Positions 2,711 through 29,497 of a DNA stretch of 64,000 nucleotides are shown here, piece after piece. A model generated the notes under the pieces. The model saw only the letters and a program-made list of their open reading frames with translations. It ran no database searches and was not told the origin of the DNA. Positions within the stretch are counted from its first letter, which is position 1. The number at the start of each line of letters is the position of its first letter. The stretch comes from Microthyrium microscopicum. Its lineage: Eukaryota. The stretch covers positions 220,627 through 284,626 of the forward strand of contig MU004230.1 of assembly GCA_010405405.1 (NCBI GenBank), given 5' to 3'. The translations under genes were made by a program, and so were the position numbers.

Positions 2711-5623
2711 GGTTCTTGAACTATAGACCTCGAAATATAAAGACGCCCTACAAACTCCATTAACAGCCCAATAATAGATCAGCACTGCATTGTACATACA
2801 ATATCTAGTAATTACAAATTTACAAATTTTCAGCACCGGCGCACTCCGCCACTCGAAGGATTCAATATCACTCCCCATATACCTTATACATCTCTTACAT
2901 ATCTGCAAATTGATAAGCCCATCTTCCCTCTTTTCTTTCCAGACAGCACGTCAACATGCCAGTCAAGTCCACCGCGCATACAATTCCGCGTTGCTTAACA
3001 ACATGTTCCTGGCGGGCAAAAGGGCGGGGTGCCTGACCGGTTTTTTATTAGTAGAGCGAATACATGGCTGGAACTGGTAAATGTTGGACATGCACTCGCC
3101 ACATTTATAGCTCAGGGATTTGTAGTTCAGGTCCTCCCTGTAGTGTCCACATGTGGTATACATCTGTGGTGTACAGTTGCTCGGTATAGGCAAACAAACT
3201 CCTGCAGTGGTTTGATGTAAGGTGGTCGTAAGGCACCTGAGTTAAGGAATTGTACTGAGAAAATGTCACACGAAACGGGAATGTTGTAGCTATGCGATGT
3301 TGGAAATCGATCGCGGTAGCTGCCTCTCGAGTGCACGAAATATTGGATAATCTTGAGATATGCAGATACAGGGTAATTGGCAGGCAAGACCACAGGGCTG
3401 ACACTGAAATGGATTTTGCTGGCATTGCATCAATCCTGCCTTGCTTGCCACCATCTCCGCATTCATCACGAAAGGCCCGACGAACTTATCTGGTAGCACC
3501 TGTTCAATCACCGCGGGCTCTGCACTTCTACCTTAGGCATTCTGAAGCGATCAAGATATGACAATTTGAGCAATAGCTGAATGATGAGATTTTATGCACG
3601 ATGAGTCGGATGAAACGATGACACAGGATAGATGTAATGTAGCAAGATTTGTCCTCGTTTCTGAGCGACAGCTTGAACACTGCAAGATTGAAAATGTGGG
3701 ACTACAAGTTCATGTGGTGGAATGGTCAGGCTTGGTTCCTCAGGTAAGCTAGCCACCTGGGATAAGCGACACTGTGTCGATGGAATTCAGGACAGATGGG
3801 CTCGGTACCAATGAATTGATGGTGATACAACGTGGGCAATATGAAGGGTACCGAGTGGATTTATGTCGACCGTTTGCTTGTGGAACAGGTTCAAGGGACA
3901 TTATGGCAATTAGACTGAATAGTTAGGAGAGACAAAGAGTCAGTGACTATAGACAAAACAAATAAATAGCACTGTCTATAGGTGTATAGTGATTAATAGT
4001 AGGCAAATAGTTGTAAGGTGGTGGTTTGGCTTGGAGGGAGGCATATTTTACCCCACGTGTCACATCGGAGGCGGACTTTGGGTGGAAGTGGGCTGGCCAA
4101 TTAGAGGCAAGAACGGGTAAATCGTTGCGGCAGGCGCCGCTGGATCCCGTCAGATTGGACCAGCCTCCAACTTGGCATGGACTTGCCTTTTTAGGATGGT
4201 TGGAGGTGGGATCCCGAGAATTAGCTGATGCGCATAGATTGAAACCACACGGCTCATAAGAAGAAACGAAATGAAGAGAAAAATTCAATGGCATGAGAGT
4301 ATTAAATCCATAGTGAAAAAATGGCGTGCGAGAGAAATATAAAGTATATCTTTGGCTGAAGGCTACTAGTGTGGGAGATATGTACTTGATCAAGGTTGTT
4401 CGATTGATAGAGAATAAATGGTGGAGATATTGAAAGCGCCCGCTTGGGCAAGTGCGTTGAATGTGACAGCTGTCTTACAATCATACAACCAACTGATCTC
4501 TTGCAATGAAGCATGACAACAATGTAAATAAAATAATTAGACTCTGTAGAGAGCAGTGGAAAGACGGACATGAACTCTGAATGGTGCATTAGGCGTGCTG
4601 TTGCATGTTGCGGTCACAGGGATTGCTTGTCCAACCCTCTCACCGCTTCTTCTTCAACCTTGGCTGCATCAAATTCCATGCCAGTCCTGCCAGTCCTGCC
4701 AGTCCATGCCCATCCAGTCCCCCTCCAACATCCCCAGCCAGTCGTCCATCTTCGGCTGTCTGATCCCGCTTCCTGGTCTCTCACTAACCGCTCCAAAATG
4801 CAACCAGTCCACCAACTTGTGCCAGCCGTCCAAAGCAGGTCCTGAGAGCGTAAAGCAGCGCGAGTCTATGCCAGAAGAGTGCAAAGAGCCAGGTTCCGGC
4901 CAGCCAAACACGCACCGTGGCCCTGATACGAGTCTGGATCTTGCTTGAACTGCTTGAACTTGCCAGTTTTTGCCTATCTCGCCCGCCTTGCTGAACTTGT
5001 GGGGCACACGCTGGGGAAGGCCATAGACTGTAGTAAGCCTGTGGTAGTAGTAAGGAATAGTGAGGGAGAAACCGCTCGTAGGCTCGTCACTCAATGCACC
5101 ACCACCAGCTGTACCGTACCATTAGACACGCAACAGTTGACAGGCATACACTACTACCACTCTGTGCCCGCCAGTTTCTAATCTCTTTCTCTCTTCTTCC
5201 TTCTCCGGCTATTCTGATTACATCTCAACTTCGGATTGTGCCCGCAACTGCCCTCGCAAAATCTGTCAGCACTGGCCTTTTTTCATTTGGGTTATCAGGA
5301 ACAGCTTGACCAGGGAATTTAACGGCCTTGGAGATCTACGGAATCCACGGTGGGCCCTGAGAATACATAATCTGGCACTGAGCCATTCAAAGTGTTAGTT
5401 GTCGGTGTGCAAATACTGGCCAGCCCCGCCTAAGCGTCTATCACTCCAACTCCCGTGCGCTTCGACCCGCACAGCCCCGACCTTCTCCTCTCCTCTCCTC
5501 AGCCAGATCCTCCACTGTCATCCAACTGTTGTGCTTCTCACGCGCTGGACGCACTGCCGGCCGGCTCTGACGCGATAATCTCTGACCGCTTTCCATTTAT
5601 CTCTCATCCGCCGACCGCCCATT

Positions 5624-8270
5624 ATGGATGACAACCTCCAGTTCCCGCACGGGCAAGACAATCAACTCCAACCCTCCAACTCCTACCAATCCGCCTCGAG
5701 TCAACAACAATTTGCCTTTTCCCACTCCACCTGGCCGCTCCTCAACAACCAGTATACCATGTCAGATCAAAATGTCGTGTCCGGAAATGAGCAAAACATT
5801 TGCTCAACAACCTCTGGATCTCTAGATCTCAAGCCATCAATTGCCTCACCTCTACCACCACAACTCCATTCTCCAATGTTTCAAATCGAGCAACCTTCAA
5901 TGCAATCAAATCAGGCCAATTCCTCGAACTCTCTGGGCATAACTCCTTCAATGGCCAACTCAATGTCTCCTTTGCATTTGGCGGAAATGGTTCATGGCTC
6001 ACTTGGGTCAGCAAGCTTGCAAATACGTACATCCATGGCCTCTCAACCGGACCCTACTTTACAACAAGCTATTAACGCTTCCGCAACAATGCTGCAATCG
6101 TCACCGCTGTATTCCTCCAACCACAACCTCGGCCAACTCAATTACAGTGATTCAGAGTCTCTCGGTTATTCAAGTGCCTTTGATATGCCTCTCCATGCAT
6201 CCCCCACTGACGACTTTATTGCAACATCTCAAGCACAAATGCATTCTGGACTCGACCTACTACCAATGGACGCCATGACTACCCTCGGCCCCATGGCTAG
6301 CTCCTCTTCCGCCTTTGTTTATCAAGACATGACCCAAATGCTTGGTCCAGATTGGCAAGTGTTGAGCGGTATGACTTCTGCCCCTTATGCCGACCCCGCT
6401 CTGGCGCATAGCTCCCCAGATCATCATCATATGGGGCCACGTTCCTATTCCAGCGTTAGTGATCATGGAAGCTGGACCATGGTGGAGCATTCCCAAGGAC
6501 GCCAGTCACTAGATGGGTTTTCGGATTCATCCGCTGGCGTAAGTCCAATCCTACTACATGCTCGCACCGATTCTCAATCGTCACAGCAATCGGACAACCC
6601 CCCTCTCTCCGCCCATTCGCGAAGCTCATTTGACGAGCTCTTTGCTATCTCCCCGGAACCGGAAGCTCGCAATGATCAGTCAAATACCCATGGGTACTCG
6701 CAACAAAGTCTACGGGAATACCCTTTCGCTTCAAATCACGAATTCGATCAACCTTTGCCTAGCCCACCTCTTCCAAGTCCCTACGCCGCTGTCAGTGGTG
6801 CTCGACCAATTCCAATTTCTGCCGCACATTCTCCCTCCTCATCTTCATCAAGTACTTCCGCTAGCTCTTCTCCCAAAGGAAACCGGAGAACCAGCCCGTC
6901 TGGTGTTGTTGCCAGTAAGGTGACCAAGAAAAAGTCTCCAATGGCTTCATCCAGCCGTGACAAGCCAGAAAAGCGAATCGGTCGCCGTCGCGGACCATTG
7001 AGACCTGAGCAGAGAGAACAGGCTCACGAAATCCGTAAGCTCAGAGCTTGCCTGCGATGCAAATTCTTGAAAAAGGTCTGTGACAAGGGTAATCCCTGTG
7101 GTGGATGTCAACCTGCCCATGCTCGTCTATGGCAAGTTCCTTGTACAAGAATTGACATTAAGGATGTCGGATATTTCCTCAAGGACTGGAATGCTGACTA
7201 TGAACGCCATATCACCCTCGGATTCTCGATTGCCAACATCAAAGGATTCGATACCAGAGAACGTCTTCTCTACGTTACCCACGGCTATGGATTTGTCATG
7301 CCAATTTGGTCGAGAGAAGTCTTCGTTCGTGATGACAACTGCCTTGGATTAGACTGGACGGAACAAAAGGACAACGTGGAGCGCGAATTTGAAGTACAAA
7401 CTGCCAAGCTTTCAGTTGGACGCGAAGGCATTGACAAGAAGATTGTATCGGACTATGTGGATCTCCACCTCAACTCTGGGTTCGATCATTTCGTGAACGA
7501 ATACTTTGATGGCACTCCATTCGTCTCTGAATTATTGAAGTCAATTAACCGCCACTATCTTGCAACTAAGCAAGAGAATCTTCGAAAAGGTCTTCGCCTT
7601 GTCATCGCCTATGCTCTTACTCTCCACATTACAATGGTTCAGGGTCTTACAGAAGAGGAAGCAACAGTTGGAAAAATCGAAGACCCATCAAGCCGCTATT
7701 TCGGCGAGACTTGTGCTCCTGTTATGATCAACTTTGAAGTCAAGAAGGCCATGGCCGATTTGTGGCGTAAATTGATGAGTGAATGCCTTGCGGAGCTATC
7801 CACACTCTACTCTTCAGTCTACGCTGGCGGCAAGCAGAAGAATTGGCCAACCATTTTTATGCTTGCTGCTCTCGTGCTCTCGGTTTGGGAGATGATGCAG
7901 TTTGACAGCCATTATCGTCAACCAGAAGAAGGTACGGTCTCCAAATTCTGTAGCGAGATGGAACATGTTCCAGTTGGTGTTCTCGTTGGACTTTTTGGTG
8001 CCATCTCTACCAAGCTCCCAGGATTCCAAGAATGGGACGCCCGCAAGCACGGCAACGTTTTCAACAACAACCAAGCTGTATGCGACACAATGACTGAAGT
8101 GCGCGGTCATATTGAAAAGCATGGTAAGTCCTATCAAATTGAAATACACGAAGCTCAACTAACTCCTTCTAGACGCGTATTTGAGAACACGACAAGATTC
8201 CAAGTTTTGCCGTGATGATTTCGACTGCTTGTCCAACAAGTTTTTGAGCAAACTAGTCATTCGCGCGTAA
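5624..8270 (+). CDS. Zn(II)2Cys6 transcription factor
   Basis: ACLRCKFLKKVCDKGNPCGGCQPAHARLWQVPC cluster after a basic NLS-like RRRGPLRPEQR. S/Q-rich N-terminus. Intron 8124-8172 (gtaagt...ctaac...tag) gives the last exon ...LSNKFLSKLVIRA*. Confidence 0.92.
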
Positions 8271-9129: not shown

Positions 9130-9764
9130 CTACTCCCACATCCCACACGCCTCATCATTCATTTCTCCCCCCCAATGCCAACTCCTCTTCCCCGGCTCCA
9201 ACTTCCCACCCACCAACACCCTCTCCACATCCGGCGCATACGCATACCTCGTCCCGTTCGCCTTCCGCCAATACTCCCTCTTAACCTCCTTCACATCCTC
9301 CATCCGATCTTTCCAACTCGCCGGAAATAACATCATATGCAGTCCCCTCTGACACTCCCCATCAAGTCTCTGACTACTGTACACCGGCATCGGCTCCTTC
9401 AAATCCGTAATTACCGCATGAAAAGACGGCCGCTGATGGGCACACAGTCCATAACTTCAAGGGCTTGGATGGTGTGCAGGCTTCGTATTTACCGTTGGCG
9501 GACCCGGTGGGGAGACGAGGGAGACGAGGGAGTGGTTGCTGTCCATGAATGTGAATTTTATGGGGGTGGTTGGTTTGGCGGGCTTTCGGGCTGGGTGGTG
9601 CGTTGGAGGGGTGGGGAGAGGGTGGTGGTGATGGGTTTGGAGGGAGAGATGTTGTTGGGCGTGTAGGGGGCTTTTGGGGTAGGTGTGAGGGTCGTGTTGG
9701 TTGATTGTGGGTTGGCGGAGGATATGAAGAGGGCGGTGAGGATGGATATGGCTTGAAGGTACAT
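9130..9764 (-). pseudogene. Possible disrupted secreted-protein gene
   Basis: Signal-peptide-like start MYLQAISILTALFISSA. The protein-like downstream frame (...KFTFMDSNHSLV...HHPSP*SYGLCAHQRPSF...EACGMWE*) needs one frameshift and read-through of one TGA. Confidence 0.4.
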
Positions 9765-10488
9765 TTTGGTGGTGATATATGCTTTGTTTGGTAGGTGGTG
9801 GGCTTGGCGAGTTGAATCATGTTGCTAGATGTGATATTTGTTGGGAAGCATTATGTGAAGGAATATACAGAGAGCTGGATGGTTTCTATATCTTCTGAAA
9901 AGCATGTTGCGATCGTGAATGATATCTTGGTATTGGCGAGGCGTTGAATCGTGGTTCTTAGTCTTGGAGCATGGCTAACTTGGATGCTCTATAGCATCCA
10001 ATATTGGCATTCATCTTACATATAAAGACTGCACGAAGGTAGTCTACCAGGCTTGATCTAACCTGGATATGGTCTTTGCGACTCTTTAAGGCTTGAAAAG
10101 AATTTCATGCATTTCTAAGGTAGGGAAGATAGGGTCCAAGGCTATAGTAAACCTTCTTGGCTTGGTGTGAAGTTGCTTCCCAGTGCCGTTGATTGTAACA
10201 TTTCCTGTGCGAATTCAAGCTCATGCTTGTAAAACTTATACTGATGGTCGTGATCCTCTTCAACTAGAAGCTCCTTTCTTGGGCTCAGTCGCAGTCGAGG
10301 GCACTTATTTCGAATTTCGAAATGGACCATGATGCGGCGGCCCGTTTGTATTGACTTGTTGTGATATAACTACTTCCTAGGTAGGTAGGAGGCCTTATTG
10401 GCCTTCTAGAGATAGATATTTGTAATCATAGTCAAGAACCACGTCTTTTGGCGAGATAGTCCTAGGCGTCCAAGCGTAACCATTGTCG

Positions 10489-12578
10489 TTAAGGTGATTC
10501 CTGGCTGTAAGTTAGATTGATATCGGGATCATATTGCAACTCGTACCATAAGTTTTGACACCCACTAGTTGTCGTAAACTGAAATGTTATATCGCCCATA
10601 TGTTCATTTATCAAGGATATCTGATTGTCTAACGGTCTGTTAGCGACAGCCTCCAATTCTGCTATAACAGAATGGATCTGAGAAGCGACCTACCGTGCAC
10701 TCTTTCGTAATTGTGACAGTCGTCAAGATTGACGTCCACGATTGTTTTGTTAGCTTCGTCTTCTGACTGGACCGAAAGCCAATTCCCTGGTGTTTTTGTC
10801 GAGTTTTGCGATTGTTGAGAATCTGTCACTGTTGATAAAGGGTCGACCTCTAGAGGCTCGGAAACTTCACTGTCCATTTCATCATGAGACCTAGCTGACG
10901 GGCTAGCTCCAGTACTACTGGACGGGGACATTCTTGCAATAGAAAATGGAGATCTGTCACCGGAAGCACTTCCTGAAGCCTGGACGATGGTGATTTCATC
11001 TTGTTCGGCTCGAGCCATCAACAGCCGTCTCTTTTCCTGTTGCTCTAAGAGCATCAACTGCATTTGATAATCCTGAAGAACATGTTTCTCATTGGTCGGC
11101 TAAACGAAGGCATAGATCAGTCTCAGGGTATAAGCAAGACACTTATAATTTGAAGCAACTCGGATGACTAACCTGTGGGGGAATGCGACGGGTTGCATAG
11201 AATCCCGTTCCAAGGTCGAGTGTATCATTCTCTTTCCATTGGAGGACCGTTAGTCTGTGATCAGCATCGCGTTGATAATCACTTTTAGCATCAGCAGACG
11301 AAATAACACGGATCCGTCGGAATTTTCGCAGATTCGCGAGGTTATTGTCAATACCATCTTCTCGTTTTCGTTTGAGCGGCCTTTTCGGCCCAATGAATCG
11401 CTTTTCGCTTGACCTTTTGAAAGCGAATACAGCTCTGCTGTTTGTCACCGATGTTGTCTTATTCAATGTGTCTTGAATACGTCGAAAGATTCCACCACAA
11501 GATACACTGTGACGTACGTTAATGAGCAAAGGCACTGTGAAGAAAGCCGGCGAGTGGAACTCGTGACTCACCATTCTATTTCTTCATCTGGGCTTCCCTT
11601 GTTGACTGCACCACATCTTGGGCATCCTGTTGTTTGTACTGATTGCTGCTTGAATACCATACTCATAGCAACCTTCTGACCAGGCCGAAAGCAATTCTCC
11701 CAAGGCTCATCAAGGTCAATTTCTAGCCGAGTGGCAGACTCTTCAAGAATAAAGGATCTGTCATCTATCATATTCGGTCCGCAGCCTGTTCCTTTGACAT
11801 TGTCCTTCAATACTGCTAGTAAAGCATCTGAGGACCTTATGAACTCTAAATGAAAAGGCATGAGTCGATTCAGAGCATCCACTAAATACACTGGCTGTTG
11901 TCGCTGAACCTGTCCGGGCATCTGTCGGATGAATATCTGTATGTCGTGCACGATTTGGAACACTCGCAGGTTAGTCTGAATGGTTTGGGCGCTTAATTCG
12001 AGCAACATCTTCCCCTGTTGAACACTTTGTCCAACGCTGTTAGCAATTGCGCTTAACTTGCCCATCGCTTGGTTGGAAAAGTCTTGCATCCTGCTAGCTA
12101 GAGTCTTGTGGCGTGACTCTTGCTTGCGAGCTTCTATCTTTGTGGTGTTCATCTCTATGGTCAAGAGCAATATCTCAATACTGCTCGTATGGCCCCTAAG
12201 CTCAGCCCGAAAGTCCTCCAGCTCCTCCTTCTTGCACAATGCCCACTTGATCTTCACCCAGCCATCCTTGACTTTTGAGGCTGTTCCCCTTTTTTGTAGA
12301 TGTGGTTGGTATTTCTGTAGGCCTTGATAGAATGCAGTGATGGTCCGTTGGCACTGTGAAGCGGCCTGTCGCAGCGCCACCATCTCTACATTATATGCTT
12401 CATCTGGTTCGAGGCGTTTGACGTGTATGAGTGCAGTTTCGAGGGAGTAAAGCTCGTTGATTAGGGACCTGAAGGAAGCCCCAGAATTGGACGTTTCGCG
12501 AAGTGCGTCTATCACAGTGCCCACCAAGTCGATCGCGGCAAGGAAATCGCCAACGGAGAAGCCGAATCCGACAGACAT
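10489..12578 (-). CDS. Multidomain protein (~628 aa): fungal STAND-type N-terminal helical domain (HeLo-like/SesA-like), ubiquitin-like domain, Zn ribbon, EVH1-like (PP4R3-type) domain with a Som1-like insert
   Basis: Exons 12578-11572, 11506-11173, 11099-10694, 10628-10489 join in frame (1887 nt) through GT-AG introns. Motifs: MSVGFGFSVGDF; QQPVYLVDALNRLMPFHLEF...FRPGQKVAMSMVF; CPRC...CVSC; LQDYQMQLMLLEQQEKRRLLMAR. Confidence 0.8.
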
Positions 12579-13146
12579 AGTCAGCTCTAAATGAGCTGGG
12601 AAAAGCTGAACCTAACCAGATCACGGTCGCAAGTCGGGTTGCAACAACCACTTTATGTGAGCAAGATGTAATGCTCCGCCACGATATATGCAGGCCTCGT
12701 CCAGCGACCAATCACTGCCGTTCAGCCTGACAGGTAGATAAAAAGTAGAGACGGGTAAACGATATAGCCAGATAACTCGCTAGCATCTTCTTCTCTGGCA
12801 ACTACCTAGTATTGATCACAATTTGTGCCCAAGTGCTCACAATTTGCGCATCCAAGATCTACGGAATTCTGTTGAACCCACGCACAACTCAATAGGAGAT
12901 GCTTGAGAACATTTATGGCCAGTTTTATTAGTAAGTGATCGTTGTATTATCACTACTAATACAACTACGTGATTCCAACCCATTCAAACGATTCGCCGCC
13001 AAAATGCACAGCAAGGAGAAGCGTTGCTATGATCGTCTTAAGCACCTGCCATAATTCTCTGCCTTTAGTTTTCGACTCTTGCGTGACTGATTCCAAGTTA
13101 CAGTTCACTCTTAAAATTTCCAAGAGAGTATAAAGACTAACTGTGC

Positions 13147-19721: not shown

Positions 19722-22700
19722 TCAATCACCGTCCCAGCGCGGTATCCACTCATCCCCTGGATAACTCGTCGCCTTCATCTCCGGCTCATCGTCGTCCTTC
19801 ATGTTTGTTGCCGGCAGCTCAAACACTTGTGAATTCTTCCTCTCATGCTGTGCATGCCTTGGAACCGTGTTCTCTTTGTTCTCGGATGGTGGTTGGGCGT
19901 TGACAGGGCCGGGAGTTCCGTTCCGTGAGGAGGATGGTGTGTTGCTTTGCGAGAGCTGTTGAGAGGCAGCGCGGAGTAGGTGAGCGGTGCGTGTGGTCAT
20001 TGGGCTGGCGGTGCTGCTTTCTGGTAGCGGGATGGTGGATGGAGAGCGTGGGTCTGGAAGAGCAGGATGGGGTTGAGTTTGGGCGATCGCGCTTTCTGGT
20101 AGAGGTACGCGCGAGGGAGAGAAGACGTCAGGTTTGGGTTGCTGGGTCGGTAGATCTTGGGTGACGATAGCAGCCAAGGGAATCTTGGGTGGTGGTGGAG
20201 GTGGCATTGCTTGCCGAGTTTGGGGAGCATCAAAGTCGGTGGAGGCTTGAGTTTCGCTCAGTGTTGTCAAGGTGCGCTGTGGACCAGGTCGAGGAGCTGA
20301 AGCTTCAGACGTCCGTGAGCGTTGGAGGACAGGTATTGGTGGTGGGTGGTATGATTGCTCAATATCTTCATCTTGAGCGGTAGGAGGAGCGGAAATCTCG
20401 CTGCTTTGTGCTGGAGCGGTGCTCCCTTTTTTCAAAGGCTCTGACTGAGCGGCTCCGGGGGTACTTTGCGCTTCATGATAGGAAGATGGTCTTGGCTGGA
20501 CTGCGCCTTCTTTATTGACATTCGGTGGTGGATATACTAGATTCCCAGTAGGATGCTGTGGGCGTGGTTGTAGAATTGGAACATTATTCTTCTGAAGAGG
20601 AGCTTTCTCAGCCTTGGCGTGGTTAGCACTAGCCTCCTTGATGCCTTCTGGCTTAATCTCGCTGGTTTCATCTACTTGTTGAAGCTGATGGATACTACCA
20701 TGTATGCTTGACGGACGACTAGTCTGCTGCTCTAATGATTGACGAGGCCTTGGTAACTGCTGCTGTATTTCTTGAGAGCGACGAGTCTCCAGTGATTGAC
20801 GAGAATAATACCGTGGTGAATTTGCACCAGAAGGGGATTCCTGTCTCTGTCCAGGGAGGGACTGCGACAAGCGTCTGGGTGTTTGAACGGGAACATCTTC
20901 TTGTACTGATGGCGGAGTTCGAGATATTGGTTGCACCTGTATAGCTCGTCGTGGTAACTGCCCTTGGTCATCCTGTTGATACTGCGGTGCTTGTTGCTGA
21001 GCCTGAGGATGCATGTACTTGACATTTTCAGGTGCCCGTTGCGAAGTTTGCCCATTCGAGAGTCCGACTTCCTGATTAGGCGGAGGTTGCGAGCCTGGTC
21101 GGGAAACCTGAGGAGACGATTGCTGTGAATAGTTCTGAGGCGTTTGGACATGCTGAACTTGACTAGGTGTTCGAACCTGTTGGCCTTGTGAGGGTGGTCG
21201 AGACTGCCCTTGTCCATAGCCAGCCGGGGCAGCTTGCTGTGGAGGTGGTGCCTGCTGCTGTTGAATATAACCCTGCGGTAATGGCGAAACTTGTGGCATG
21301 CGAAGAGGTGACTGCGGTTGCAGCTGTGGAACCTGTGGTGGAAGCTGTCCTTGTTGCATCTGAGGAGGTATTTGCTGTTGTACAAAACTACCTTGCTGGG
21401 AAGCATCAATCGGTCGCGTCATCCGAGGAAGATTTGCCATCTGATTCGAAGGAATACCCTGTCCACCGACAGGCGCATATATAATCCCCTGAGGAGTTTG
21501 ACCAGGTGCAGATGGATACAAATACACCACATGCCCAGGATTGGAAGGGTGTATATAGTACTGCCCGCCTGGAGGCATTTGTCCTTGAGGGGGCATAAGC
21601 TGGGCTCCCTGAGGCACACCTTGAGGAGCAACCATTTGTCCAGGTTGCTGTCCTTGCTGTTGTTGCGGCGGTCTACCCATTGGCTGCCCAGGCATTTGCT
21701 GAAACTGCATACCGGGTGGTAATGTAGCTCCAGTGGGACTCATCATGGTCTGCCCTCCTTGTTGCCATCGACGCTCGGCGGCATACCATATCTCTCGAGC
21801 CATGATATCGCGGTCACTGTCCTGGTCACCAGCGGCGGGTATATTAAGGTTCCATGGTCGTTGTTGATGTTCCAATTGCCCTGGAGCGTAGAAACCACCC
21901 TGTTGTGGCTGACCTTGATCCTTCTTTTTGCCCAATTTATGACCAGTGGTTCCAGATCTTCCAAAAAGACTTCCCAGAGCAGAAAATCGCTTTTTCTTTA
22001 CAGGCTCGCTGTGGGCAGACGTTTGAGCCCGCTGAACTCCAGTTGGTATTGGTCCTTGTGGCCTCATAGCCATTTGCTGTGGGGCTCTTCCTTGCATTTG
22101 CATTTGTATCTGCTGTTGCATCTGTTGCTGTTGCTGTGGCGAAAGATTCAGAGGCATTTGCGGTTGAGAGGATGTCCGTTGGTGCATCTGCTGCTGAGGC
22201 GGCATTTGTTGCATTTGCTGAGGAGGTCGCATCTGCTGCTGCATTTGCTGAGTCTGAACTGATTGTTGAGATTGCTGCTGTTGCAGTCGAGGAGGTTGCA
22301 GGGGTTGCTGTTGAGGAGGTATACTGCCAACAGCAGCATTTGGATTTTGCAGATAATCTGCCCGTGATGGAGACTCACTAGCTTGGCCATGAACACTGTT
22401 ATTGTCTTGAGTAAGAATGGACTCTGATCCAACAGATGGCGATCTGCGAAATGGCTGAAGTAGAGAAGCACGCTTTTTACGAGCTTCTGATACATCGTCT
22501 GGCTGTACTGGGGAGGGGCTGGATGTCTGCCCAACATTCATTCTTGGATCACGAGCCATTTGAGGTTGCGATTGCGGTGGTTGTTGACTCTGTGGTTGCA
22601 TTTGGCCTCTACCCATCTGAAGCTGTCCTTGGGATTGTCGCTGTTGCTGAGGCTGGGGTTGACCACGACCCATTGGCGGTTGACCTTGGAACTGAGACGG

Positions 22701-25700
22701 AGGTTGGGGTTGACCACGACCCATTGGCGGTTGACCCTGGAACTGAGGTGAAGGTTGAGGCTGCCGATTCTGTGGGGGGGCCATGGGTTGTTGTCCAGAC
22801 ATAGCTGGAACAGGCGGTGGAGTCACAGTAGCTGGTGCCGGGACAGCATTATTCTTCTTACTACTGAAGAGTGAGGTAAACCTTTTACTCTTCTGCTTCT
22901 CTTGCGATTTCTCCTGCGGGAGCTGCTGTCCGGCCTGTTGCTGCTGAAGCATCTGCTGCGGATTTTGACCGGCCTGTTGCGCTTGCTGCATCTGAAGCTG
23001 TCGTTGCTGCATAAGCTGGCGTTGGAGCAGTTGTTGTTGCTGTTGCTGAAGAAGCTGTTGTTGCTGCGGATTCAGTTGCTGTTGTTGGAGAAGTTGTTGT
23101 TGCTGTTGCTGCGGAGTGAGCTGTAGCTGTTGTTGTGGCGGAGGTCCACGTGGAGGCATAACTTGAAAACCAGTATTTTGCACCTGAGGACCATTTGGCT
23201 GACGAGCTTGATTAACCTGCACTTGAGGTAGTCGTTGACTTGTAGGCGGTTGGACAGGAAACTGTCCGCTTTGAACATCTTGTGTAGTTCTAAGAACATT
23301 CTCTGAAGGCCTAGAAGACTGTCCATTCAAGGTATCTTGCTTGACTCCACGAACATTCTCCAAGGACAGAGGCAATTTCCTCGGTTTTACTTCCTGAGAT
23401 GGTCTACGAACGTTTTGAGACTGTCCATTTGGTGCATCCTGTGACATGCCACGTAAATTCTCTGAAGGCCGAGGGGGTTTAGACTGCGGTATGCTGCCAA
23501 GATTCAATGGTTGTTGAATTCCACTAAGCGGTCGACTGGATCGACGAATCTTAAACTCAGTCGGTGGCATAGCAGATGCATCATCCGAAGAACCAGGCCG
23601 ATAAACATCAAGCACTTCCTGTGATGGTTTGCCAGCCTGATCGCGTGGAAGAGGAACAAAAGACATGGGCCGTTCCAGTTCTGGGTTTGGTGGATTGTAG
23701 TCGCGCGAGTTGAATTCCGGCTGCAGTAGTTGTGGCTGAGAATTCGAATGTATAGCCGGTGGCTGAACTTGAAGTTGTTGATACTCTGGCATTTCCAACG
23801 AGCGGGTACTGACTTGACTGAGCGCAGGACCGAGTCCACGATTAGATGGCAAGGGAGCATCTGGAGCGGGATACTCGCTTTTGACTGACGGCATTGGACT
23901 GACAGAATGTCTCCCGTCCGTTGGCGCACCCATCAGGGACAATGAGTTGGTAAACGTAGGAGTTGTATTTGACTTGTCCAGATCACTCACGTCAGCAGCC
24001 GATTTGCTGACTACGGATTCTTCGGGCTCAGGTACGGCGTGCCGAGCCTCTTGTAAATCATTTTCCAAGGCGACGCGATCTCCGTACTGTCTGACGCTGT
24101 CAAAGTTGAGAGATATGTGGTCATCTCCATCGTGTGCAGAAGTTTCCGGGATGGTATGATGACCTGGATGTTGAATCAATGATGGTCCCGCGACAGGGGT
24201 GGTACTTGGTTCCTGGTTCGTGTTCAAAGTTGGAATCTGTGCTGCAGGAGATTGATGAACATGATTTTCAGCATAATCCGGCGAAATAGCACCAGCGCGC
24301 TGATGCTCAATCGGACTCTGTTCATCGACAGCACTAACGGGCTCTGACAGCTCTTGAACCTGCGGCCGATGCTGCACTACAGCTGCAACGCGGTCCATTG
24401 CGGGCGGATCCGTCTGCAAACTGCCAGGTTGATCTGAAGAAGGGAGGACAACAGCAGCAGCAGAAGACTCGCCTTGCCTTCCAGCCTGCTGCTCCGTGGA
24501 TAAAGATTTGCTTGTCGTTGTTGCAGCAGCAGCAGCAGCCTTGGCCTTGTTGTCACCAGCCTCGTCAATGGGGCTTACCCCAGGATCGTCATCTCCAATG
24601 TGGACGTTGAGATCCTCAGTGGGCAAAATCATGCTGACGACACGCGCATTGCGATCAAGAAGCTTTGAGTGCAGCGAGCCTGTCTTGCTTGCCGCGCTCT
24701 TGAGACTCGCTTGGCTGGCGGTGGCCGGGTGCGACTTGATGGCGGCGTCGTCTCGCGCCGTGTCCTCTTGGGGCGGAGAAGGCGCAGTTTCCTTAGCAAA
24801 GTTGACCGGTCTGGACGCCCCCACATGGGCCGCTAGGACAGAAGCGGGTGGTGGTGGGCTGGAATTGGAGGGTGGAGTGGTGGTGGCCTTGATCATGGTC
24901 GCCTTTTCCGCATTGCTGTCCGAGATTATTGATATCCCGTCGTCTAGTGAGTTGCTGATATGTATGGTGTTGATATCAGACTGGGTGGAGGTTGGCAATG
25001 TAGTTGGAGTTGGAGCTGTGGATGCTTGGGGCCCAGCTAAATTAGCTGGCACGTTTCCACAATGCGGCTCTGCTCCTGGTTCCCGCAAATTAGAGCTCCC
25101 CCTCCCTACAGATTCAGATTGGTATGAAACCAGCCCTGAATCCCTCAACTCCATCTCCATCTCCCTTTTTACTTGCTTACTACTATTTCCAGAAGTATAT
25201 AAATCATCATCACTAACATCATCAACACCTGTACCCCACTCACTCTCCCTTCTTACAGTTCCAAATCCCTTGCCTTCCTGAGAAATCTCCCGCGACAGCA
25301 TTGAAACATCAGAAACAGACCTACTTGCTCCAGTACCAGTGCGTGTAAAAGCAGCAATACTCGGATCTTTCATCAACGGCGCATTCGCATGGAAACTAGG
25401 CAAAGTCGGCACTGGCGGCGGTCTCTCTTCAACAGCTTCACTTTGCGGCCGTTTCCTCGTCTTTGAGAACGGGGAGAAACCTCTACTCAACAGGTTGCCT
25501 GCGCTAAACCTTCGTTTCTCGCTTGAAGTGATAAGTATTGCCTCACCAGGCGCTTCGCTAGGAGGGAGCGTATTTCTCCGCGCATAGGATTCATCGGACT
25601 GGCTTTGTCTTTGGGTAGGAGGTCGTGACTGTGAAGTATCGACAGAAGAACGCCCAAGAGGAGATTCAGAGGAGTTGGCCTACAGTAATCATTTGAGCAT

Positions 25701-28700
25701 TCATCCTCAAAACTTGAAGAGAGATCGGTAGAGGAAAGAAAAGTCTTCGTAATTGTGACCCATTTTTGAATAATATCGTACAGAACGATCGAATAAAATA
25801 CAGTATCGGACCAACTTCTGCCCTTGCTATGATCTACTCCAGGATCAAGAAGTGTACATCAATATTCTCGACCCACTTCGTACGACGTATTCTGTATCAA
25901 TCTTGAATACTCAAATTCATTTCATTTTACATCAATCATTCTCAACGCAGCATCTCCTCCCGTGCCAACAGATATTCGTGTAGAAAAAGACAATAGAGTA
26001 TACAGCATCCAGTCATACAAAGAAAACGTACAAAGACGCAACAGCAAACAAACGCAAAAGAGTAGTAAAATATATGAATCAAAAAAGAAGTGTTTCTAGT
26101 TACCTACATCATCACCCTTCTTGCGTCCACGATTCATCTTTCCAAACAACACCTTGGACTTGCCGCCCAATCCTTTAAGCGTCTCGCCCACCACTTTGCC
26201 TGCATTTGCCATTCCTTGGCCACTTGCGCGCTTCGAGTCCGGTGAGTACTCGCCATAATTTGCACCCGAGTCTCCTCCACCGGAGGAAGTGGAGACGCCG
26301 AGTATCTTGCCGATACTACCGCTTTTGATATGTCCGCGGGCGCTGAGGGACTGGCTGGCGGATGGTGAGAGGAAGGAAGAACCGACGAGTGGCTGCGCGG
26401 CTTCGGCTTTGAGACCATTGTGTTCGGGATATTTTTGTAGAGTCTGGGCGAGCCAATTGTCGAGACCGTCGTTCATGGCGGCCCATTCGGTGCGGGTTGA
26501 GTTATATAGATCAATGCGGTCGGGTGTGGATTTGATGTTCATGATTTCTCGGAAAGAAGGAAGAGGTGGGAGTGATGCACCGGATGCTTGAGCTGATGAG
26601 AACCGTCCGGCTGCTTTTGGTGGTTGGACGGCAGAAGTTGGTGCTGTGATTGGAGTTTGGAGGTTCTCGTCGATACTGCTTCGCTCTTTGAGCGCTGAGG
26701 GTGGTGTGGAAGGCCGTGGATGTGCGATAACAGCGGCAGCACCAATACCTGCTGCTATTCCTATACCGCCGCCCATGACTGCTGGAGCAATACTACTGCT
26801 TGTAGCGGGTTCTTGTGGGATTTCCTTGTGGGCGGGCGTATCTGATGACATTGCGGATACAGGGCTGACGCTCTGCGATGGAAGGCCTAGTGCTGGATCG
26901 GTTGCGGCTTCAGTCAATTCTCCAGGTTGCGCGTTTTTCACGTGTAGTCCTTCCCCAGCCATACGAGAATTATCGGCGACAGTGTTTTGTCTCCCTCTTG
27001 CGACTCCTGCAACGCGTGGCTCTTCGGGTGTAGAAGTGGGGTTGCCCGCTCCAGCGCTTACATCAATATGACTCGATTGTGCAAGTGATGATTGCGTCTC
27101 CCAACTAAAGCGACGATTGAGATTTGGCGCTGGTACTGCATTAACGTTTTCATCAGAAGGCAATAATGGAGAAACAGGATTTTGCTGTAGTGGGGCATGG
27201 GCCTGTTCTGCCGAGTTGTGAAGTGCAGGAGCCGTTGTAAGCATGCTGGTAGCAGGATTTGCGGCTGTGGGTGTTGTCTCGAGATCTTTTGGTATAGCCC
27301 GTGTTTGTTTTGGTGTTGTAGGTGAATTGATGTAACCTGATTCTTCATCTTTTGCAGGTGGAGTGGGAGGAATCGTAGACGCCGTAGACTCAAATCGGTC
27401 TGGTGGCAGAGGACGTGCAACACGAACGTCTCCATACGAAAAGCGTCCTTTGTTGGTTGTCGTCGGCTCATTGACTTCTTCTGCATCCTTTGAGCCTGAG
27501 CTACCAACTGATTGTCGAATCGCTTCGCCCATGGCTGCTCCTGCGGCAGCAAGGGACGCTAAAGGTCCCCCAAATGACTTGTTTTGTAGCTCATGTTTCG
27601 GGGTAGTGGGAGACAGATCTAGCGATCGTTCAGGAGGTGTGACAGGGCGTGGCTTATAGGAGTCTTCATGCTCGATCGGAGGTGGGATTTCCCCAGCGGG
27701 TGATGGAACCGCACTGATTCCCATTGCATAAGAATCAAATTGTCCCGGGATCTTAGGTCGCGTAGGCAAAGGCTTCTCTAATGCAGTAGGAGAAGAAGTG
27801 GCCGTTGACCCCTTACCCGTGATAAGTTCGGCGGATCGAGGACGAGGCGAATCGTGAGTTGTTTTGATCTCAGGGGCACTACCCTTGGATCCAATCGAAA
27901 CTACTGAGCTTCGCCTCGATTTTGTCATGGTGTCAAATTGAGAAGCTAAATCAAAAACCCTGCCTTTGGACGGTGACGACGATCTGGAATTCGCAGCGCT
28001 GCCTATCTTAGGAGGCCGTGGAAGATCTTCATCGTGAAAAGACGAGCTCATGGACGCTTTGGTGGGCTCATGTGGTAAAGCTTTCTCTGGAGTGGCGGGT
28101 AGAAATGGCGCAGGTGGAAGTGATTTTTCTCCTGTAGTGGGTGCTGCGACGACGCCTCCGGAGCTACCTCCAGTACGATCTTGGACTGGACTGAGGATTG
28201 GACTGATATCCGCAGTACCGCGCGAGGTTTCCGTGGCCAGGGAGCGTTGAGAGTCCTGTTTAGACACTTGACCACCCTCTGTAGGACCAAATGCGCGATT
28301 TACTAGTGTTCTAAAGCCTTGAGAAGGCTCTCTAGTCGGTAAAGAATCTGCATTACCGGAAGACAACCCCAAGTTCGAGCAATCTGATGCAGGGGCAGCT
28401 TTGCGCTGTACTGGTGAATATGATTTTGTTTCGGAAGTAAGGGGAGGATTAGAGCCCCAAAAATCAGACTCAAAATCAGTGCCTGATCCGACTTGAGGTA
28501 ATTGATAGTTTTCCACAGAACCCTGTCTATCTCTGGACTGTTGTCCAATCTGCTGTAGCTTTTCTTTCGCACCAGGTTGATCGAGTAGACCATATTCGCT
28601 TTTACGCTCAGGAACAGTAGTGAGCATGGTCTTTCCAGCATGAGCATTCTCATCCTGCATTTTTTCAATGCTTGTTCGTGGCGCCGCACCAACAGATCCA

Positions 28701-29497
28701 GTACCAGTACCTTTCGAGTCATCGGTGCCTGCAACAGATGGCTGTGATTCCATGGACGCTCTACGTTCCTGATCTTTGGCTTCTTGCATCCGTTTATAGA
28801 TATCGGCTGGCCGCATAAAAGGCTTTGGGGCCGAGGAGGTTGATCTTGGATCATATGCGCCAGCAGATGGAGGTCTCTCAATGGGCGAAGTTATACTATT
28901 CGTGGGTGAGGCCGTATTGTCCCTCGCAGTTTGTAGTGGCGCGATCATGGCAGAAGGTGAGAAATCTCTACGATGTTCTGGATTTGTGGATGAAGCATTC
29001 GATGCGATCGTTGGGGCTATACTGAGTCCGCTTACGTTGCGTTGACCAGGCGGATTAATTATAGGTGCGTCGGTAGCCGGAGCAACTGCTTGCGCAGGCG
29101 GCGGGACTCCAGCAGAAAATGTTCTTCTTTCGTCGCCTCTTTCAAAGGATGATGATCGCTGAATGGCTGGCGCGGCTGGAGACGTGAAATTCCTCGTGCT
29201 TGCACCCGCGGCACCTTGGGCAGGAAGAGGTGGAGCTTCGTTTACTCCGTACTCATCATCCTCGTCATAATCACCCCAATCATCTCCCCCATACGAACTT
29301 GGCTTTGCTTCAACCCATTTCTTTGTTTTATTACGATTAACATTGGTTTTGAACGAAGGCGCTTCTTGAGGGGACAGGGTGGTTTGTTGTCGACGATCAC
29401 TAGGGTTTGTCAGTCATACGGTTATTCAATGCTGAGATTAGACATACAGCGGAGATGTTATGCTATCCTTGTCGGGGAATTGGTAAGGCTGTTCCAT
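19722..29497 (-). CDS. Giant intrinsically disordered Q/P/S-rich fungal protein (~3,099 aa; possible ~1,117-aa short isoform)
   Basis: Exons 29497-29448, 29399-26108, 25679-19722 join in frame. Conserved-looking islands: FKTNVNRNKTKKWVEAK..YGGDDWG, FMRPADIYKRM, FREIMNIKS, and terminal MKATSYPGDEW. Confidence 0.8.

Follow-up and report, generated by a model that had tools for sequence, protein, structure and literature searches.

A HeLo-like protein of Microthyrium microscopicum with an unusual modular architecture, from a family with variable C-terminal tails

A stretch of 64,000 nucleotides (nt) from Microthyrium microscopicum (assembly GCA_010405405.1, contig MU004230.1, positions 220,627 to 284,626 of the forward strand; hereafter the window, in whose own coordinates all positions are given) carries on its minus strand, at 10395-12578, a single multi-exon gene whose product, P0001, is a HeLo-like protein of unusual, modular architecture that has no nucleotide-binding oligomerisation domain (NOD). 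It is very probable that P0001 belongs to a large, uncharacterised fungal family, in which a HeLo-like/PigL_N four-helix bundle with a near-invariant GxxxG start leads into a long helical hairpin, a ubiquitin-like domain (ULD_2), a CxxC..CxxC ribbon, a basic patch and an FRRIRV strand, after which comes a variable C-terminal module; the same high confidence extends to its being the product of an expressed, five-exon gene of 644 amino acids (aa). In the clade of P0001, sequence comparison identifies the C-terminal module as a putative EVH1 domain of the PP4R3 type, which in P0001 appears to have diverged and to be interrupted by an insert of ~109 aa, and in this insert one amphipathic helix of the SomA type (YQMQLMLLEQQ) is predicted, carried on a Ser-rich, disordered tether.

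Gene structure and transcript

In a list of open reading frames (ORFs) running from stop to stop, the gene appears as a 347-aa frame beginning MSVGFGFSVGDF with three more open frames downstream, and every peptide quoted in a preliminary description of the locus, made from the sequence alone, falls inside it. A protein search with exon 1 led to the window's own product, whose source name is 'hypothetical protein BT63DRAFT_380723 [Microthyrium microscopicum]', and the join of exons 12578-11572, 11506-11173, 11099-10694, 10628-10547 and 10500-10395 translates exactly to its 644 residues, the stop codon occupying 10395-10397 at the end of exon 5 (these and all features of the gene given below are on the minus strand). 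The four introns all have GT..AG borders: intron 1 (11507..11571, 65 nt) is in phase 2 and falls within the Cys336 codon of the zinc ribbon, intron 2 (11100..11172, 73 nt) lies in the tail, intron 3 (10629..10693, 65 nt) contains a CTAAC branch-point-like motif, and intron 4 spans 46 nt (10501..10546). A contig of 4788 nt from run X1, the sole public run containing the stretch, skips exactly these introns and joins all five exons with 0 mismatches; whether the run is RNA can only be guessed from its records, and the contig is taken to be a spliced transcript because the four canonical introns are missing from it. It covers 10100..12626, its end lying 48 nt 5' of the ATG. The locus is a genuine, expressed gene, and its transcript is spliced with all exons. 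A long intron that would skip the insert in the tail was considered and rejected, since the contig keeps the insert. Beyond the gene's stop the contig runs on for ~2.5 kb, below 10100, towards a convergent 878-aa ORF (5579-8215, plus strand) with a weak Zn(2)Cys6 match, which may reflect a long 3' untranslated region or an overlap of two convergent transcripts.

The preliminary description had assembled three ORF fragments and an unlisted last exon into one frame, and its account of the splicing holds in part: introns 1 and 2 agree with both the exon join and the contig, but its 32-nt intron 3 (10693-10662) ended too early, the true acceptor lying 33 nt further on, and its last exon read straight through intron 4, which the contig shows to be removed. 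The length of 628 aa that it gave cannot be recovered, as a model rebuilt from its coordinates yields 639 aa and the real product has 644, and the boundary it drew at 10489 excludes coding sequence that reaches 10395. It had also asked whether transcripts end before exons 3-4; the X1 contig carries the last exons. That the locus is an artefact of annotation, whether a chimera of neighbouring genes or a set of non-coding ORFs, is hardly credible. Gene-model fusions are common in fungal annotations, and the homologue P0025 carries an N-terminal amidohydrolase fusion; here, however, a single 0-mismatch contig joins five exons at canonical borders, the zinc ribbon is completed across intron 1, and homologues are colinear with P0001 through aa 444. 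Barring misassembly of that contig, such an artefact is already refuted.

The conserved core and its family

The size of the family is evident from a phmmer search against 1.84 billion cluster representatives, which gave 2457 matches at E<=0.001, 869 at E<=1e-10 and 172 at E<=1e-30; all of the source-named members seen belong to Pezizomycotina. Conservation begins with the first residues, MSVGFGFSVGD (aa 1-11, 12546..12578), which include G6xxxG10 and in which F5 is kept in 78, G6 in 80, S8 in 77, G10 in 79 and D11 in 80 of 82 aligned members. A glycine zipper is reported, in the available text of a preprint (bioRxiv 10.1101/839308), as necessary for the membrane targeting of HELLP. The PigL_N or HeLo-like helical domain proper occupies aa 19-186 (12021..12524), with a long helical hairpin continuing to ~aa 219, and the Pfam scan places PF17111 at aa 18-187 with 42.6 bits (cut-off 27.2, E 5.9e-11). 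SesA (PF17107) falls below its gathering score in P0001 (13.1 bits vs 26.3, E 0.11), so that of the 'HeLo/SesA-like' N-terminus proposed earlier the HeLo-like part stands and the SesA part does not. In the portion of PMC9815663 available, PF17111 is treated as the HeLo-like (Helo_like_N) effector domain of fungal NOD-like receptor (NLR) systems, and a match to its profile is described as aligning almost perfectly with the MLKL executioner domain. An AlphaFold2 model of P0001, built on an alignment of 82 rows (A1), has helices at 9-29, 34-55, 60-88, 102-184 and 186-219, mostly with a predicted local distance difference test (pLDDT) score >80, and is confident over the core as a whole (residues 1-350 mostly pLDDT >80; block pLDDT ~91 for a strand at 400-405). 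Structural alignment of residues 1-150 with VIA-align, a method which warns that helical Z scores below ~13 can be generic, found MLKL 4btf_A at Z 11.0 (root-mean-square deviation 2.4, 99 residues aligned), the Rx coiled coil (CC) at 10.0, MLKL 6ux8_A at 9.7, the NRG1.1 CC-R at 9.6, AtMLKL3 at 8.8 and MLA13 at 8.6, every one of them beneath that caution line.

Behind the helical hairpin, the ULD_2 domain (aa 226-310, 11649..11903) matches PF22893 with 49.5 bits against a cut-off of 24.5 and is modelled at pLDDT 97-98, in agreement with the ubiquitin-like domain named in the preliminary description. Its weak Foldseek rows are ISG15, UBX, ubiquitin variants and the ELMO1 RBD (template modelling (TM) score by target 0.5-0.64, E >0.01), and those of the whole model are helical bundles (SPECT, IncA, Rx CC) and ubiquitin-like folds. 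The putative zinc ribbon, CPRC-x13-CVSC (aa 319-339, 11497..11624, across intron 1), which had likewise been spotted by eye, is a four-Cys element conserved in the family, C319 being kept in 75, C322 in 78, C336 in 52 and C339 in 52 of 82 homologues, and it is modelled at pLDDT 83-96; no Pfam ribbon family scores above its cut-off in P0001. In alignment A1 the column of C336 holds W in 16 of the 82 database homologues, and reading through intron 1 in the window gives TGG and then a stop. This match suggests that the position of the phase-2 intron is conserved and that many of the short family entries (~330-340 aa) are probably truncated gene models, so that counts of tails are underestimates. 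The conserved core ends in a basic KRKRE patch and the FRRIRV strand (aa 377-403, 11305..11385); the pattern [FY][RK]R[IVLM]x[IVLM] occurs downstream of the ribbon in 54 of 171 fetched family proteins.

What follows the core differs between members. A Pfam scan of 74 of them (13 + 61, mostly ~420 aa or longer) found NACHT or NB-ARC, the NOD families, in none of the 74 and none in P0001, as the preliminary description had held. Above the Pfam cut-off, tails matched EVH1_PP4R3 (P0008, P0101), Myb (P0229, 61.5 bits), GATA (P0114, 38.7 bits), Forkhead (P0143, 63.9 bits) and Clr5 (P0016, 51.6 bits), and MIT was found at the cut-off in P0218. Below it were EVH1_PP4R3 in P0006, P0001 and P0010, HPt in P0014, P0018, P0020 and P0013, bZIP in P0010 and P0011 and ubiquitin in P0007, with weak Myb matches in P0227 and P0150. 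The singletons (GATA, Forkhead, Clr5, MIT) may be gene-model fusions. A tail profile built from five family tails and searched against 235 proteins added EVH1-like tails that Pfam had missed: two of its own seeds, P0099 and P0107, and as new cases P0011, P0234, P0021 and P0096 (first half).

A maximum-likelihood tree, computed quickly from 82 rows and 350 columns of the core (LG+G4), with the Shimodaira-Hasegawa-like approximate likelihood-ratio test (SH-aLRT) as the sole support measure and with 57 rows that carry no tail label, some of them truncated models, divides the family in two, with support of 99 for either clade. One clade, of 46 rows, contains every row with an EVH1 tail (ten) or an HPt tail (eight); the former are scattered throughout it, the latter are monophyletic (SH-aLRT 98). 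The pattern is compatible with an EVH1 tail of old origin that has since given way to other tails or disappeared, though with 57 unlabelled rows it is no proof. In the HPt sub-clade (P0012-P0015, P0017, P0018, P0020 and P0110) an HPt-like C-terminus replaces the EVH1, six of the eight proteins measure 590-603 aa, and one bears the source name 'Multistep phosphorelay regulator 1'.

The C-terminal tail

The best view of the tail comes from a relative, P0008 of Rhizodiscina lignyota, which is 45% identical to P0001 over the core and whose EVH1_PP4R3 domain is intact, at 48.5 bits against the Pfam cut-off of 27. By sequence it matches solved EVH1 domains (PP4R3A 6r8i_A, E 5.3e-10; Falafel, E 3.3e-9); AlphaFold2 gives it seven strands and a helix at the C-terminal end (block pLDDT mostly 80-93); and in Foldseek the best matches are 6r8i_A (E 1.1e-7, TM 0.74, 41% identity, human PP4R3A), a structure titled 'PP4R3A EVH1 domain bound to FxxP motif', and 4wsf_A, both ranked ahead of Ran-binding, Homer, Ena/VASP and Dcp1 domains. 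Against P0008, BLASTP aligns P0001 in two colinear pieces, residues 1-444 to 1-415 and residues 554-606 to 420-472 (E 3e-5), and the tail profile likewise places its positions 1-39 at aa 398-443 and 45-105 at 554-613, with a whole-sequence E of 8.3e-5. The first part of the putative domain (aa 416-444, HRLTVLQWKENDTLDLGTGFY, 11182..11268) corresponds by alignment to P0008 to the first two strands and is found by BLASTP, the family hidden Markov model (HMM) and hhalign. The second (aa 554-613, 10491..10781, running from WLSVQSEDE to GCQNLWNHL across introns 3 and 4) is found by the same three and by Pfam. Between them, in the loop after the second strand, lies the insert of ~109 aa (aa 445-553, 10782..11181), visible as a gap in the homologues and containing intron 2, which is placed three codons past the point where the EVH1 alignment breaks off. 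With domain-trimmed tails, MAFFT sets aa 445-552 of P0001 apart as a single, clean insertion that none of the 8 EVH1-bearing homologues has; on full-length proteins or untrimmed tails it misaligns the second half.

On these alignments, both of the peptides that the preliminary description had singled out as PP4R3-like would belong to the two parts of one PP4R3-type EVH1, diverged in P0001 and interrupted in the loop that follows strand two. The suggestion was right in kind, in that P0008 has a bona fide domain and the halves in P0001 are colinear with it, but the match in P0001 itself stays below the cut-off. P0001 is not a PP4R3 orthologue. In PP4R3, the regulatory subunit 3 of protein phosphatase 4 (PP4), the EVH1 is N-terminal; in P0001, which retains both halves of a domain that in its clade is of the PP4R3 subtype, it is C-terminal and split, and the PP4R3 core (PF04802) has no Pfam match at E<=0.1. 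Neither a second copy of the motif nor another EVH1-like ORF was found in the window, and the presence there of a PP4R3 or SomA gene was rejected accordingly.

In P0001 itself PF22972, which the precomputed Pfam column for P0001 already lists, reaches only 17.9 bits against the cut-off of 27 (E 0.0035, aa 555-613, profile positions 33-91); hhalign gives the two parts E values of 7e-4 and 6e-4, with a probability of only 26-28%; and P0001 has no relevant match among the sequences of the Protein Data Bank (PDB), where a single row was returned at E 0.096. The AlphaFold2 model has pLDDT <50 at 419-449 and at 530-644 (30-38 over 530-644), regions in which the alignment behind it is wrong, and the domain is missing from that model because alignment A1 misaligned the second half. 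A complex prediction with the two halves as separate chains (398-447 and 550-625) scored 0.01 against a mark of 0.34, in a run that did not use the alignment. The ESM Atlas model of P0001 gave, by structure, weak PH and EVH1_PP4R3 rows only and, by features, no usable match. To judge from the sub-threshold match and the low pLDDT of the AlphaFold2 model, the EVH1 of P0001 may no longer fold. Among the nearest relatives by the core tree, P0093 and P0002 (Penicillium) score E 0.44 and 0.46 with the tail profile, neither of them significant, and P0094 is unmatched, which suggests relaxed constraint on the tail.

It is conceivable, but rather unlikely, that the tail is decaying. In that case the insert would have broken up the EVH1 and left a relic, and importance would be confined to the core and perhaps the SomA-type helix. 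This would account for a Pfam score that is the weakest among members with a full-length tail, for the very low pLDDT of the last 115 residues, for the lack of a recognisable second EVH1 half in the closest relatives and for the replacement by Leu, on our own reading of the alignment, of the second-strand Trp of PP4R3A and P0008. A relic sits less easily with a frame that is open, correctly spliced at three introns of the tail and transcribed, or with two halves that are still colinear and detectable, and the poor model of the tail is possibly due to its misaligned input.

The helix carried by the insert has a wider distribution than the domain around it. The 30-aa motif (KHVLQDYQMQLMLLEQQEKRRLLMARAEQD, aa 452-481, 10998..11087), with its core YQMQLMLLEQQ, is a single copy in the window and stands near the start of the insert, the remainder of which is Ser-rich; AlphaFold2 models a helix at 451-488 with block pLDDT 78-94 over 451-480 and <50 beyond the helix. 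Searching with aa 446-500 recovered 64 other proteins (P0029-P0092), in most of which the motif is almost identical, in the form NHALQDYQMQLMLLEQQNK[KR]RL[LM]MAR[QA]EQD; the copy in the window departs at 5 of 30 positions from the form seen most often. Many carriers are unnamed proteins of 680-900 aa; among the names are one 'Transcriptional activator somA', one 'Transcriptional activator' and three 'LisH domain-containing protein', and in proteins named SomA or LisH-domain protein the motif is almost invariant. According to Pfam it also occurs in ankyrin proteins (P0032, P0033, P0056), F-box proteins (P0052, P0079, P0087), a ZZ protein (P0083), an NBR1-like protein (P0091) and proteins with DUF7730 and DUF7025, and at the extreme C-terminus of P0090, an ankyrin protein of NACHT type (NPHP3_N). 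It is often in tandem, sometimes with 2-3 copies. Within the family of P0001 it was found in 3 of 171 members: P0001, P0101 and, as a degenerate copy, P0163. In P0101 (449 aa) a strongly PP4R3-like EVH1 fragment (28.6 bits, 31 residues) directly follows the ubiquitin-like domain without a ribbon and is succeeded by the YQMQL motif; either a rearrangement of the gene or an error in its model might explain this order.

The 'Som1 module' of the preliminary description is thus borne out as a motif common to SomA-named proteins and not as a SomA domain, for the motif occurs in unrelated architectures and P0001 has no Pfam match to LisH, whereas P0080, named somA, has one. With SomA/Som1/Flo8, a transcription factor with a LUFS domain, P0001 shares this one motif and no LisH/LUFS or further similarity. 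The available part of PMC4631450 describes SomA with LUFS/LisH and a nuclear localisation signal (NLS), names PtaB as its partner and does not mention the motif, and a literature search for the string QLMLLEQQ found no paper. By its distribution, the motif is a promiscuous short module, and the putative YQMQLMLLEQQ helix makes a strong candidate for a docking motif not yet described.

Candidate mechanisms and significance

Among the ways in which P0001 might act, a self-contained sensor-executor mechanism of the MLKL kind is tentatively favoured, because the layout of executioner-type bundle, helical brace, compact ULD/ribbon/FRRIRV unit and recognition module is most like that of MLKL. We infer an N-terminal bundle that would act as a membrane-targeting executioner and that the helical brace and the ULD/ribbon unit together would keep inactive. 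Contact with a cellular partner would fall to the C-terminal module, through its EVH1 groove, its SomA-type helix or both, and the binding, loss or modification of this partner would release the bundle or allow it to oligomerise. HELLP, HET-S and MLKL have in common with P0001 an N-terminal bundle of the PF17111 family, an N-terminal GxxxG and the order of executioner domain, helical brace and C-terminal regulatory part, and MLKL is among its structural neighbours. P0001 differs in other respects: it lacks the C-terminal amyloid motif that the available text of PMC9815663 gives for HeLo-like proteins, it has ULD_2, zinc ribbon and EVH1 where MLKL has a kinase-like domain (none by Pfam), there is no partner NLR gene near its own, and its activity is only predicted.

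A number of points weigh against this sensor-executor mechanism. Firstly, the proposed membrane or cell-death role is drawn from sequence and models, and no paper was found on 'HeLo-like' with 'ubiquitin-like domain' in fungi, on PF22893, on PF22972 or on the motif. Secondly, the Z scores of the helical bundle (8.6-12.1) are all under the caution line of ~13, IncA and designed bundles score equally, and Foldseek of the P0001 model against the PDB gave no match at E<=0.001, so the likeness of the modelled bundle to MLKL may be generic. Thirdly, the EVH1 of P0001 scores under the Pfam cut-off and may have lost its fold, and the nearest relatives hint at relaxed constraint on the tail. Lastly, the KRKR patch and the DNA-binding tails of relatives point to a nuclear rather than a membrane role. 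Somewhat unlikely, in our judgement, is the alternative that these last features invite, a non-lethal adaptor or regulator in which the core would be a regulatory or oligomerising module of a nuclear protein, plugged by EVH1 and SomA-type helix into PP4 or SomA networks, as relatives would be through their DNA-binding tails. The KRKRE patch before FRRIRV, the Myb, GATA, Forkhead, Clr5 and bZIP tails, the unspecific structural matches of the bundle and a motif in common with a transcription factor that has an NLS and nuclear function (PMC4631450, in its available part) would all suit such a protein. Less suited to it are PF17111, best known, in the available text of PMC9815663, as the cell-death effector domain of fungal NLR systems, and the near-invariant N-terminal GxxxG, which fits membrane targeting.

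An integrated decoy, as raised by the preliminary description, is improbable. On this view two hubs, PP4R3 and SomA, would be imitated in the tail by baits, namely the EVH1 copy and the SomA-type helix, and an antagonist's effector aimed at those hubs would, on binding the bait, trigger the HeLo-like domain without a NOD module. Tails across the family do resemble conserved regulators (PP4R3 EVH1, Ypd1-like HPt, Myb, GATA, Forkhead, bZIP, Clr5, MIT, ubiquitin), the EVH1 of P0008 is specifically PP4R3-like, at the 41% identity to human PP4R3A given above, EVH1 tails have diverged far more than the core, and the SomA-type motif recurs in three family proteins and at the tip of the NACHT-ankyrin protein. 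Putative integrated decoys of fungi are so far a proposal confined to NLRs of Sordariales (available text of PMC12258605). With these and the integrated-decoy NLRs of plants, P0001 shares an executor-type chassis and an added regulator-like domain in a tail that is variable among homologues; fusion to an immune receptor was not found, and the NLRs differ in having a nucleotide-binding domain and a paired helper. No NLR chassis was seen in any of the 74 scanned members, nor an NLR beside the gene among the nearby large ORFs scanned with Pfam. The EVH1 tail looks old, inherited across the clade of 46 rows and not recently captured; a word-based search with the EVH1 of P0008 matched only itself and no close PP4R3; the singleton tails may be fusions of gene models; and no effector is known, divergence fitting decay equally well. 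A broader proposal, again a long shot, is that the PigL_N-ULD-ribbon family consists of NOD-less fungal sensor-executors, in which a HeLo-like killing domain is linked directly to exchangeable baits, each a copy taken from a core regulator (PP4R3 EVH1, Ypd1-like HPt, transcription-factor DNA-binding domains, the SomA helix), a one-protein analogue of integrated-decoy immunity of which P0001 would hold two baits, one nested in the other. These rival readings are not mutually exclusive.

Besides the weak Zn(2)Cys6 match, large ORFs nearby have an MCU-like match and a WW domain; open frames of 1985 aa (19722-25679) and 1105 aa (26096-29413), both on the minus strand, match no Pfam family at E<=0.001. 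At 9331-9850, a short way downstream of the gene, there are Pro-, Thr- and His-rich low-complexity open frames on both strands, among which a frame of 158 aa has no Pfam match.

The individual domains are not new, both core profiles and the PF22972 match being already in Pfam, and a literature search found no paper on the architecture, on ULD_2 or on the motif, nor on EVH1_PP4R3 outside PP4R3, although supplements of the cited papers might list the family with HeLo-like proteins outside NLRs. In known systems, a HeLo-like domain serves as a death effector and is activated by an NLR via amyloid signalling. In this case the HeLo-like domain is found in a very large family (2457 representatives), with neither NOD nor amyloid motif, and is combined with a ubiquitin-like/zinc-ribbon unit and exchangeable recognition modules. 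If the N-terminal part is active, fungi would couple recognition to membrane attack in a single polypeptide, as MLKL does in animals, and the family would supply testable candidates for decoy-type sensing outside NLRs.

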